From Candidatus Oxydemutator sp. (lineage in GTDB: Bacteria; Pseudomonadota; Gammaproteobacteria; Poriferisulfidales; Oxydemutatoraceae): a stretch of 64,000 bases of DNA. Location: NCBI GenBank assembly GCA_965203445.1, contig OZ241883.1, forward strand, positions 2,080,001 to 2,144,000, in the 5' to 3' direction. Both the position numbers and the translations under genes were made by a program. Shown piece after piece: positions 52,937 through 56,566 of this stretch (the stretch's first letter is position 1; each line of letters starts with the position of its first letter). The notes under the pieces were generated by a model. The model was not told where the DNA came from, ran no database searches, and was given only the letters and a program-made list of their open reading frames with translations.

Positions 52937-52959
<23 letters not shown>
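51628..52959 (-). CDS. tilS: tRNA(Ile)-lysidine synthetase
   Basis: [29 protein letters not shown]...RN; start uncertain. Confidence 0.92.
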
Positions 52960-53896
<937 letters not shown>

Positions 53897-53923
53897 CAAA
53901 GATAGGGAATTATATACCTAAAT

Positions 53924-55204
53924 CTACAGAGTAACCTGTAGATTAGAAGTATCCATTTGACGTTTCACAGGCAGTGCCGTGTCGGATGTATCTTTCGATA
54001 AATCCTTCATGGTCTTACCATTGCCTCCGCGTCCAGTAGCCCCATTCCCGGAGGCCTTCAAACTCAGTACAGATTCTCCCAGCTTCTTGATATTCAAGGC
54101 AGCGTTCCAATCCGCATTATCCCGATGACCGCAATCCGTACATACAAATACCGATTGCGATACTCTGTTCCTCTTGTCTATGCAACCGCACACATTGCAA
54201 GCTTGGCTAGTGTGCTTCGCACATACATAATTTACTTGGGTCTTGTATCCTATACATTGCTCTAACTTATGCCATCTTGTATTCAGTATCCCTCTATTCA
54301 ATCCTGACTTGGCCTTTACACTCTTGCCGGGGGCGGCAGCCGTGCCTTTGGCACTCCTGGTCATACCCTTGGTGTTTAAATCTTCCATATATATTACAGA
54401 ATAATTCCTTGCGATTTCTGCACTTACATGATGGCACCAATTAGTATGCCTCTGTTTTATCTTCCTGCATACCCTCGCATGGGAATGCCGGGCAAGCTCA
54501 TAACGCTTAGAGGGTCTCTTCCTGTATTTCCTACTTCCGCAATCCCTTCTTGCCATTGTCTTTTGATAGTGGCGCTTTTGCGCCTCTAATCGAGTAGTAT
54601 CGGGAACCCGATACACAATACCGTCGGAACATGTTATCTGACCTACATTCCTGTCTATACCTACCGCATTGTATTCACGTTCCACTTCCTTTTGTTCCAC
54701 TGCATAAACCACATATGCATACCAGTTCCCGCATTCCCTTTTGACCGTGCCCGATACGGGCTTTGCATCCGGATACGGATTATGACCTAGCACTAGAAAC
54801 TCACCCGTCTTCTCTATATACAGATGACGACCCCTTATCCGAAACAAACCCGATACCAGGGGAAAACTCTCAGGATGTACATACCTCGCATGAAACCTAG
54901 GCAGCCCGCCCTCTTTCTTGTAAAACTTCTTGTACGCCGTCTCTATAGGCTTCAAAGATAATTTTACTATATTAGCTGAGTATTCCTGCAACCAGGGTTC
55001 GCAGTGGCGACGTAGCAAAGTGAATTGCTTGCCAAGTGTGTAGTACCACGGCTTGCACCTTCCATACGCCTTATATTCATCCCTCAACTTACCCACAAAA
55101 TGGTTCCACACAAACCGACAAGCACCTGCCAATCCCGCTAACTTGCGGGCTTTGGCTTGCGTGCCGGGATGCACTCTATAACGGATTGTTCGATGTACCT
55201 TCAT
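53924..55204 (-). CDS. tnpB: TnpB RNA-guided endonuclease
   Basis: N-terminal GACRFVWN, RuvC D (GIDRNV), E (MEDLN), D (ADWNAALNI), Zn finger CNVC...CTDC, TSQ. Confidence 0.93.
   Translation of the reverse strand: MKVHRTIRYRVHPGTQAKARKLAGLAGACRFVWNHFVGKLRDEYKAYGRCKPWYYTLGKQFTLLRRHCEPWLQEYSANIVKLSLKPIETAYKKFYKKEGGLPRFHARYVHPESFPLVSGLFRIRGRHLYIEKTGEFLVLGHNPYPDAKPVSGTVKRECGNWYAYVVYAVEQKEVEREYNAVGIDRNVGQITCSDGIVYRVPDTTRLEAQKRHYQKTMARRDCGSRKYRKRPSKRYELARHSHARVCRKIKQRHTNWCHHVSAEIARNYSVIYMEDLNTKGMTRSAKGTAAAPGKSVKAKSGLNRGILNTRWHKLEQCIGYKTQVNYVCAKHTSQACNVCGCIDKRNRVSQSVFVCTDCGHRDNADWNAALNIKKLGESVLSLKASGNGATGRGGNGKTMKDLSKDTSDTALPVKRQMDTSNLQVTL
53937..54060 (-). ncRNA. Putative omega-RNA overlapping the tnpB 3' end
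   Basis: GCCTCCG/CGGAGGC stem, GAAA-tetraloop hairpin, GACG/CGTC pseudoknot potential ending CGTCAA; boundaries inferred. Confidence 0.55.
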
Positions 55205-55408
55205 CACCAACCATCATATCATATTCTTGTTCAAAATCAAGTACTTCATCACTATTCTGTAGATTTAGGTATATAATTCCCCAAAGATACTCGTCGGACG
55301 GAAACGCCAGCCGAATGATTTTAGCACGAGGCGCCGTGTCTTCCCGGACGAGTGACGCCGAACGCGCCGGGCGCGGTAAGCGTCAATGCGTATATAATCG
55401 CCTTTTCC

Positions 55409-56566
55409 ATGCCGCCACGCCTGCCGACGCCCGACCATGCCCTCGACCACGCGATGACCGGCCGGCCACCCGCGTCCGCGGCCCGTCGTCTCGACGAACG
55501 CTACCGCCGTCATCTGGCGAAACACCGCCATCAATCCGACCCGGAGCAGCTCAAAGTTGTGAACCATCTGCAGCGACTGCTGGACGAGCTTGCCGCCACC
55601 GACGGCGGCGTCTGGCGACGATGGCGCGCGCGCGTCGCCGGACGCCGCGCGACCCCGCCCAGGGGGCTCTATCTGTGGGGCGGCGTCGGCGGCGGCAAGA
55701 CTTTCCTGATGGATCTGTTTTTCGACGCATTGCCCGAGGCGCGCAAGCAGCGCACCCACTTCTACCGCTTCATGCGCCAGGTACACGCGCTGCTGCGGGG
55801 CGAACACGGACGCGATCCGCTGGAGGCCGTGGCGGCGCGCCTCGCGCGGCGCGCGCGGGTGTTGTGCATAGACGAGTTCTTCGTGTCCGACATCACCGAC
55901 GCGATGATCCTGCACCATCTGCTGCGCGCGTTGTTTGCCAGGGGCATGGTGCTGGTGACGACGTCGAACCTCGCGCCACGCGAACTCTACAGGGACGGGC
56001 TACAGCGCGAGCGCTTTGTGCCCGCCATCGAGGCGCTCGAAAGACACACCCGCGTCGTGCGCCTCGAGGCACGCGCCGACTACCGCCTGCGCACGCTTAA
56101 GGCCGGCCAGGTTTATCACCACCCGTGCGGCGACGCCGCCGAAAGCGCGCTTGGGCGCGCCTACGCGGCGATCGCCGCCGACGGCCACGACGGCCGCGGT
56201 CGTATCGAGATCAACGGCCGCGACCTGGCCGTCGTCCGCCGCTCGCACGGCGTCGTCTGGTTTGCGTTCGGCGCCGTCTGCGAAGGCCCGCGCGCACCCG
56301 CCGACTACATCGCAATCGCACACCTGTACCACAGCGTGCTGATTTCCGGCGTGCCGTCGTTCGTCCGGCGCGACGACGCGGCGCGGCGCTTCATCCAGCT
56401 GGTGGACGAACTGTATGACCGCAACGTCAAACTGATCGTATCGGCGGCGGCGGCGCCCGACGAGCTGTATCGCGCCGGGCGTCTCGCCCGCGAGTTCGAG
56501 CGCACCGCGAGCCGCCTGATCGAAATGCAGAGCCGGCGCTATCTGGCGCGGGCGCACCGCGGCTGA
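55409..56566 (+). CDS. zapE: Cell division ATPase ZapE (AFG1 family)
   Basis: GLYLWGGVGGGKT, DEFFVSDITDAM, TSN, RRFIQLVDELYD, RTASRLIEM. Confidence 0.92.
   Translation: MPPRLPTPDHALDHAMTGRPPASAARRLDERYRRHLAKHRHQSDPEQLKVVNHLQRLLDELAATDGGVWRRWRARVAGRRATPPRGLYLWGGVGGGKTFLMDLFFDALPEARKQRTHFYRFMRQVHALLRGEHGRDPLEAVAARLARRARVLCIDEFFVSDITDAMILHHLLRALFARGMVLVTTSNLAPRELYRDGLQRERFVPAIEALERHTRVVRLEARADYRLRTLKAGQVYHHPCGDAAESALGRAYAAIAADGHDGRGRIEINGRDLAVVRRSHGVVWFAFGAVCEGPRAPADYIAIAHLYHSVLISGVPSFVRRDDAARRFIQLVDELYDRNVKLIVSAAAAPDELYRAGRLAREFERTASRLIEMQSRRYLARAHRG

Follow-up and report, generated by a model that had tools for sequence, protein, structure and literature searches.

A tnpB element upstream of accA

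The window analyzed here is a stretch of 64,000 nt from the genome of Candidatus Oxydemutator sp. (Pseudomonadota, Gammaproteobacteria, order Poriferisulfidales; GenBank assembly GCA_965203445.1, contig OZ241883.1, positions 2,080,001 to 2,144,000 of the forward strand). The object of study is a small transposable element within it, which carries tnpB, the gene of an RNA-guided nuclease, and lies directly upstream of accA. The genome consists of one contig of 2,378,814 bp. The size of the element is 1377 bp and its GC content is 45.6%, versus 63.6% for the genome. Its left and right terminal inverted repeats (TIRs) are, by direct reading, perfect 25-nt inverted copies of each other, and an 8-bp target-site duplication (TSD) flanks them (Table 1). 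We propose that the scaffold of the TnpB guide RNA (omega-RNA) runs through the right TIR to the last base of the element and that the guide is read from the flanking DNA.

The encoded protein matches the Pfam families PF07282, PF12323, and PF01385, and the domain set HTH_OrfB_IS605, OrfB_IS605, and Cas12f1-like_TNB was found with all scores above the curated cut-offs. Its core (residues 12–378, window positions 54077–55177) aligns with ISDra2 TnpB (PDB 8BF8/8EXA, E = 1.6e-19), while the C-terminal tail is a translation of the omega-RNA region. Residues D186, E276, and D367 align with the GVD, TEH, and DRDEN motifs of ISDra2 TnpB, and D186, E276, and D364/D367 are invariant across 12 copies. 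We take D186, E276, and D367 to be the catalytic D-E-D positions of the RuvC domain.

Table 1. Features of the tnpB element and its flanks (window positions)
Feature	Position	Strand	Basis
Non-autonomous IS1595-type element, sole cargo tnpB	53905..55281	minus	Bounds set by TIRs and TSD
Left TIR, GGGAATTATATACCTAAATCTACAG	55257..55281	minus	Read directly
Right TIR; doubles as 3' arm of the RNA hairpin and of the predicted pseudoknot	53905..53929	minus	Sequence and folds
Left TSD copy, TATCTTTG	55282..55289	minus	Read directly
Right TSD copy, TATCTTTG; predicted guide nt 1–8	53897..53904	minus	Guide role from position of pseudoknot
tnpB open reading frame (ORF), 428 aa	53924..55210	minus	Only long ORF in the element
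Promoter-like site TTGATT-16-TATGAT (with TG) ahead of tnpB	55213..55240	minus	Consensus match only
Predicted pseudoknot 5' arm GGGAAU, in a hairpin loop (GCCU.../...GGGC or GCCUCC/GGAGGC)	54044..54049	minus	Complementarity and alignment
Conserved single-stranded block GUGAAACGUCAAAUGG, scaffold end in the earlier note	53953..53968	minus	Unpaired in folds
Terminal hairpin AUACUU-(CU)-AAUCUACAGG-loop-UCUGUAGAUU-(U)-AGGUAU	53914..53952	minus	Folds and outer-stem covariation
Predicted pseudoknot 3' arm AUUCCC, last 6 nt of the element	53905..53910	minus	Alignment A2
Predicted guide TATCTTTG + ATGTCTTCCGAA, about 16–20 nt of read-through, spans the accA start codon	53885..53904	minus	Inference
G directly 5' of the left TSD, candidate position (purine) of the target-adjacent motif (TAM)	55290..55290	minus	Purine in 39/40 insertions
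accA (acetyl-CoA carboxylase carboxyltransferase alpha)	52937..53896	minus	ORF; adjoins the element downstream, same strand

Assignment of the carrier to the IS1595 type

The same genome contains 13 intact tnpB ORFs of this family, 406–434 aa long, whose members share 54%–80% identity with the studied copy at the protein level. None of the tnpB elements of the family in this genome encodes a transposase. Six full-length copies agree in the type of TIR and are flanked by 8-bp duplications of differing AT-rich sequence. Copies A and B, with a single difference in 1371 positions, occupy different insertion sites, which points to recent movement.

An element of 2616 bp located elsewhere in this genome (genome positions 1978350–1980965; L098:501-3116) has TIRs identical to those of the tnpB element at 24 of 26 positions and the 8-bp TSD ATCAGAAA. 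Its 314-aa protein contains the domains DDE_Tnp_IS1595 (E = 1.3e-43) and Zn_ribbon_IS1595, and it is the only full-length copy of this IS1595 transposase in the genome. A passenger gene of the same element encodes a 436-aa protein with N6_N4_Mtase and HNH domains. The tnpB elements thus share their ends with an element encoding DDE_Tnp_IS1595, and 8-bp TSDs were found at 27 insertions in perfect and at 13 in near-perfect form. We classify the tnpB elements as non-autonomous IS1595-type transposons because they lack a transposase and an IS1595 transposase element has near-identical ends. The features of IS200/IS605 or IS1341-type elements (no TIRs, no TSD, subterminal hairpins, and insertion 3' of a fixed motif of 4–5 nt) do not apply here because of the perfect 25-bp TIR and the variable 8-bp TSDs.

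Ends starting with GGG and an 8-bp TSD are characteristic of the IS1595 family as catalogued in ISfinder, and the present element has both. Further common features are the ISXO2-like DDE transposase with an N-terminal zinc ribbon and the carriage of passenger genes, such as the methylase-HNH gene of the partner element. Unlike the known members, the present element carries as cargo an RNA-guided nuclease, the RNA of which overlaps the TIR and is predicted to base-pair with it.

A pattern scan of species-representative genomes revealed 77 further loci, all of them in metagenome-assembled genomes (MAGs), from Gammaproteobacteria, Arenicellales, Candidatus Porisulfidus, Oxydemutatoraceae, and Opitutales. 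Identity was 44%–59% over the full length and up to 77% over short fragments. Under a strict motif rule, 14 of the 77 loci had the TIR together with a perfect 8/8 TSD, and more did so under looser rules. An IS1595 transposase was present in all five of the searched foreign genomes that hold tnpB elements. TnpB was detected at E <= 1e-30 in 12 of 31 related genomes, with the studied genome counted, so that the distribution is patchy. The Opitutales copies indicate that the tnpB element family has crossed phyla. The two copies from an Opitutales MAG (L022:1447-2717 and L025:1447-2717) are 96% identical; their right end is degenerate (...GTAGTTTCG), a matching TSD is missing, and they may be immobile.

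Several related structures were also noted. The genome contains a 163-bp miniature inverted-repeat transposable element (MITE) with the same TIRs (genome positions 113341–113503) and a 786-bp deletion copy, M (247602–248387), which has the same TIRs and keeps the 3' region of tnpB and an enlarged terminal hairpin. A second TnpB family, 34%–39% identical, is represented by about ten copies in one related genome of the same order (G035, e.g., C1:362176-363453). At one foreign locus (L042), a second ...GTATTTAATTCCC terminus lies about 40 nt downstream of the right end and represents a solo TIR or a nested insertion.

A structured RNA at the right end of the element

On the minus strand, the sequence ...GAAACGTCAA ends at position 53957, and the remaining 52 nt up to the end of the element (53956–53905) read ATGGATACTTCTAATCTACAGGTTACTCTGTAGATTTAGGTATATAATTCCC. 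The earlier note on this DNA had taken position 53957 as the end of the scaffold-like stems. It proposed either (a) a fixed guide encoded in the 52 nt, with TTGAT at 55240–55236 as its TAM, or (b) a scaffold extended through the TIR and followed by a guide from the start of accA. Its coordinates all proved correct on direct reading, as did the 9-bp hairpin overlapping the TIR, which has the arms AATCTACAG (53944–53936) and CTGTAGATT (53929–53921) and the loop GTTACT, the 3' arm being the inner part of the right TIR. In the minimum free energy fold, this hairpin is extended to 10 + 6 pairs closed by AUAC/GUAU and is followed by unpaired AUAAUUCCC, which is the end of the element.

The motif GTGAAGCGTCAAA(Y)GG is kept in 14 of 14 tails from the studied genome (the 13 intact copies and deletion derivative M) and in 44 of the 77 foreign loci, allowing up to 5 mismatches of a 20-mer. 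Beyond this block the sequence is variable in both sets, and the hairpin is always formed. A single hairpin of at least 8 pairs was predicted for 69 of 70 distinct homologous tails, with a median energy of -11.1 kcal/mol and a median z of -2.8, and for 50 of the 70 tails, the stability exceeded that of 95% of 200 mononucleotide shuffles. Arm sequences vary from subfamily to subfamily (AUAC/GUAU, GUAG/CUAC, ACCG/CGGG, and AACUUGAC/GUAGUUAAGU), and all four pairs of the outer stem (helix 6) have changes on both sides in the alignment described below (A2). As far as predicted folds can tell, the hairpin is more than a product of chance. A reading of the hairpin as a transcription terminator was tried and rejected, since a scan showed no terminator-like site there and a U-tract is missing.

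Alignment of the copies does give a conserved block followed by variable sequence, but the variable part keeps a covarying hairpin up to the end of the element. The covarying hairpin and the pseudoknot considered below lie beyond GTCAA, which speaks against a scaffold that ends at this point. Option (a) assumes such an end (...GUCAA), with the fixed guide ATGGATACTTCTAATCTACA directed at other DNA, for example, the autonomous partner or a tnpB-free copy. The block GUCAAAUGG is indeed highly conserved and unpaired in the folds, and the 5' arm of the hairpin resembles the left TIR and thus gives a weak match to TIRs. On the other hand, the 3' half of the proposed guide falls into the covarying hairpin, whose internal loops and unequal arms fit a structure rather than a guide-target pair, and the pseudoknot would lie downstream of the guide. 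The 20-mer and its 12-nt seed were found only at their own site in a search that included the IS1595 element: when up to 4 mismatches were allowed, the 20-mer matched nowhere else in the 2.38-Mb genome, and at up to 3 mismatches the window likewise gave no second match. The proposed TAM, TTGAT, coincides with the -35-like hexamer of the promoter-like site ahead of tnpB. A fixed internal guide is therefore highly improbable.

A covarying pseudoknot formed by the last six nucleotides

About 135 nt upstream of the AUUCCC end, the RNA contains a conserved complementary GGGAAU. Pairing was evaluated in a MAFFT alignment (A2) of 69 distinct sequences, comprising the copies of the studied genome and those from MAGs. 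The predicted pseudoknot helix corresponds to columns 7–12 paired with 158–163, and 98.6% of its 414 cells are paired. Pair 11-159 is AU in 49 sequences, UG in 13, CG in 4, UA in 1, and other in 2; pair 12-158 is UA in 67, CG in 1, and other in 1; and pair 9-161 is GC in 63, GU in 5, and other in 1. Two of the pairs thus have changes on both sides. Copy F of the studied genome combines GGGAAC with GUUCCC, Arenicellales copies combine GGGACU or GGGAUU with AGUCCC, and L063 combines GGGAUU with AAUCCC. Relatives outside A2 have GGGAGU:AUUCCC and GGGAAU:GUUCCC, both pairing via G.U, and the two Opitutales copies with the degenerate right end (L022, L025) keep GGAAC:GUUUC, the exact boundary being uncertain there. 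The tested structure as a whole is 87.3% paired, versus 30%–48% with the 3' partners slid by 1–3 columns, and none of 500 shuffles reached the observed value.

The alignment has two limits. It leaves out tails in which the motif rule missed the 5' arm, e.g., L054 and L069, which carry GGGAAU in a GCGG...CCGC hairpin, and MAFFT misaligns the Arenicellales group in columns 18–100, so that helices 1, 4, and 5 are undercounted there. The stem around the pseudoknot loop can be fitted in two ways, as columns 1–6/28–36 or 1–4/14–17, neither of which has two-sided changes in A2; the GCGG...CCGC subfamily favours the second, shorter enclosing stem. An Rfam search of positions 53500–55600 with E up to 10 gave four weak matches, all far below the gathering threshold and none of them an omega-RNA.

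In omega-RNAs of the ISDra2 type, five guide-flanking nucleotides pair with an apical loop and form a pseudoknot (Yoon et al. 2023, PMC10711439), and in the IS607 TnpB of ISXfa1, the guide-adjacent pseudoknot is required, as reported from mutation and rescue (PMC10711439). The modelled end-to-loop helix matches this guide-adjacent pseudoknot. By the pseudoknot rule, the last C of the TIR would close the scaffold, and the flank would supply the guide. The predicted RNA, with its covarying stems and pseudoknot, covers the 3' end of the gene, as expected for a TnpB.

Several observations weigh against this reading. Relatedness of the sequences inflates the covariation counts, and only about four or five compensatory events are independent (the Arenicellales clade, L063, copy F, the GU group, and Opitutales). 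Six of the 414 cells are unpaired (in L043, L083, L097, L067, L084, and L024), several of these exceptions being truncated or degraded copies, and L163 has an A.A mismatch in the pseudoknot. Finally, the 5' arm repeats the six nucleotides with which the left TIR begins, so that in principle the co-variation could reflect a transposase site acting at the DNA level.

The last point leads to an explanation in which the hairpin and GGGAAT are features of an IS1595 end, serving transposase binding or regulation, and TnpB is a passive or decaying cargo that has no functional guide. It finds some support in the IS1595 transposase element of the studied genome, one end of which forms an 8-bp hairpin that overlaps the TIR. 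Nevertheless, no such hairpin was found in three of four IS1595 transposase elements, in the 163-bp MITE, or at the left end of the tnpB element, and the likeness of the internal motif to the TIR ends after 6–7 nt (GGGAATGGGG versus GGGAATTATA). Moreover, G.U combinations (T.G in DNA) are common, with 13 + 5 cases in A2 and more outside it, so that RNA pairing is kept where DNA identity is broken, and the 13 diverged tnpB ORFs are all intact and retain the catalytic residues. We consider a purely DNA-level role quite unlikely. Protein constraint does not explain the conservation of the motif either, since in Arenicellales the codon context changes from Asn to Ile while pairing is kept.

Probable position of the guide in the flank

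The best explanation of these data, with a probability of about 0.7, combines an IS1595-type carrier, an omega-RNA scaffold that extends through the right TIR and ends in the modelled pseudoknot, and a guide obtained by read-through into the flank. The IS1595 DDE transposase would move the tnpB element in trans. The scaffold would continue past ...GUCAA and through the hairpin, using the inner right TIR as the 3' arm, and would terminate with AUUCCC, paired to the GGGAAU loop upstream. The guide would then consist of TATCTTTG, the TSD, followed by ATGTCTTC... from the start of accA. The ribonucleoprotein (RNP) could recognize the uninterrupted site, where the guide sequence is preceded by the left flank with a purine at position -1 (candidate TAM), whereas its own copy, with ...UUCCC in front of the same sequence, would be left uncut. 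Cleavage of uninterrupted sites, either naive or restored by precise excision, could cause the element to be retained or copied by recombination, the role proposed for IS605 and IS607 TnpBs. We infer the production of the RNA, the guide start, the TAM, and the retention or homing role from this structural model.

Option (b) of the earlier note is thereby supported, since the final 6 nt of the TIR take part in a predicted covarying pseudoknot, and the 52 nt beyond ...GTCAA are most likely scaffold, not guide. The note had called either option a non-canonical guide logic. Under option (b) the guide is flank-derived and in this respect canonical; it is the carrier, a DDE transposon with TIRs and TSDs, that is unusual.

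Another position of the guide start is conceivable if the scaffold absorbs both the TIR and the 8-bp TSD, as in Fanzors. In that case, the accA ATG would mark the start of the guide, with the AT-rich left TSD copy serving as the TAM. For Fanzor1 and Fanzor2*, an RNA that takes in the TSD and continues for about 15 nt past it has been reported (PMC10711439; PMC13565253), and the TSDs of the present family are AT-rich, as are many TnpB TAMs. However, these TSDs share no consensus motif recognizable to a protein as a TAM, the pseudoknot arm stops precisely at the final base of the element, and the one-sided purine described below would be located 9 nt upstream of the guide start. A guide beginning after the TSD is therefore unlikely.

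Three sites in the studied genome (918626, 1207281, and 1210565) match the predicted guide with 4 mismatches, having TATCTnTGATGTCnT in common with it, and their upstream bases are similar; they probably represent an unrelated small repeat.

A one-sided purine next to the left TSD

The flanks were compared in a de-duplicated set of 40 insertions with TSDs matching at 6 or more of 8 positions (30 of 49 and 10 of 24 rows of two locus listings). Directly 5' of the left TSD, 39 of them have a purine (G in 28 and A in 11) and one has T, whereas on the right a purine occupies the mirror position in 18 of 40 (Fisher p = 1.4e-7). All 27 insertions with perfect TSDs have the left-side purine. A one-sided preference should not be expected from a symmetric transposase. 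With a guide that starts at the TSD, the purine would occupy protospacer position -1 of the empty site, which is the place of a TAM, and at the element's own copy, position -1 is occupied by C (...UUCCC). The family may therefore use a minimal purine TAM.

There are counterarguments to a purine TAM. Only 11 of the 19 rows excluded for poor TSDs have a purine at -1, the left ends being unreliable there. In four tnpB-less IS1595 elements with clean TSDs (from the studied genome, L106, L111, and L124), 4 of the 8 ends carry G at -1, but the set is too small a control for a preference of the transposase. In addition, a TAM of one purine would be unusually short for a TnpB.

Taken further, the data are compatible with a TnpB lineage re-tooled for a DDE cut-and-paste transposon, in which the same 25 nt act as transposase site and as scaffold, the TSD acts as the guide seed, and the need for a single purine imprints the 39/40 bias. 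The purine would then be imprinted by the nuclease and not by the transposase, with elements persisting or homing only where the empty site can be cleaved. We put this forward tentatively, as a possibility that is more doubtful than not. If true, it would be a prokaryotic parallel to Fanzor adaptation and would provide a TnpB with a near-TAM-less range; were the one-sided purine itself the TAM, the result would be a compact nuclease (about 410–430 aa) with very loose target requirements.

Comparison with known TnpB and Fanzor systems

Association of TnpB with DDE transposases has been described. Altae-Tran et al. (2023, PMC10691335) reported six DDE-associated TnpB branches with inverted terminal repeats, as well as solo TnpBs that share these ends and are presumably moved in trans. 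The linked families are IS630 in the main text of that study and ISL2, IS630, and IS1031 in a 2026 review (PMC13565253). IS1595 is not mentioned in the main text of PMC10691335, the supplements of which may list it, and our literature searches found no description of an IS1595-borne TnpB or its RNA. The present element resembles these DDE-associated and solo TnpBs (PMC10691335) in its inverted terminal repeats, in the location of the tnpB 3' end within 250 bp of the element end, and in sharing its ends with transposase elements, but differs from the named IS630, ISL2, and IS1031 cases in being of the IS1595 type. DDE elements leave a break anyway, so the benefit of TnpB may be smaller for them (PMC13565253).

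With ISDra2-type IS200/IS605 TnpB, the present system shares the homologous whole core, a gene whose 3' end is overlapped by the predicted RNA, a pseudoknot built from the last scaffold nucleotides, and a guide beyond the right end. In contrast to IS605, which has no TIRs or TSDs and a Y1 TnpA (PMC13565253), the carrier is a DDE-dependent transposon with TIRs and an 8-bp TSD, and there is no fixed target motif by the left end to act as the TAM. IS607 TnpB (ISXfa1) is likewise similar in that the scaffold boundary is shifted to suit the transposase and a guide-adjacent pseudoknot is required; however, its transposase is a serine recombinase, TIR and TSD are missing, and just one flanking nucleotide is absorbed (PMC10711439).

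The closest parallel in the use of the transposon end is provided by eukaryotic Fanzors. Fanzor1 and Fanzor2* RNAs are encoded in transposons with TIRs and TSDs, and their scaffold holds the TIR and the TSD and reaches about 15 nt beyond (PMC10711439). Common to both are the predicted inclusion of the TIR in the scaffold, a guide beyond the transposon end, and a non-autonomous element carrying the nuclease only. Unlike Fanzors, the present element is bacterial and keeps the pseudoknot, which is reported as lost in Fanzor1 (PMC10711439), and its TSD, being 8 bp long and variable, is more likely guide than scaffold. The details newly added here are the TIR-built pseudoknot and the one-sided purine. 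The element would represent a bacterial case of TnpB RNA co-evolving with the end of a DDE transposon, so far documented mainly for eukaryotic Fanzors, and the pseudoknot variants with natural compensatory changes could be used directly as mutants in tests.

Insertion site in the accA leader

The gene downstream of the element is presumably accA, as judged from the similarity of its N-terminus to that of E. coli AccA. The element is inserted within the leader of this gene and in the same orientation, with the right TSD abutting the start codon (ATG, 53896). Transcription of accA must therefore pass through tnpB and its RNA, and the former upstream context has been lost. Three genomes of the same genus contain accA without the element upstream; their intergenic sequence upstream of accA is diverged, and the exact pre-insertion site is unreadable there. 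A conserved GTGCTAAAAT lies about 36–38 nt upstream of accA in these three element-free genomes and is found here at 55327–55318, displaced by 1385 bp. The empty site was not seen in the contigs of three DNA runs. Both junctions of the element are covered by contigs of one run (X1). Another run (X3), which comes from a different study and bears another organism label, contains pieces identical to the element and its left flank (window positions 54607–55470), and its sample probably has this insertion as well.

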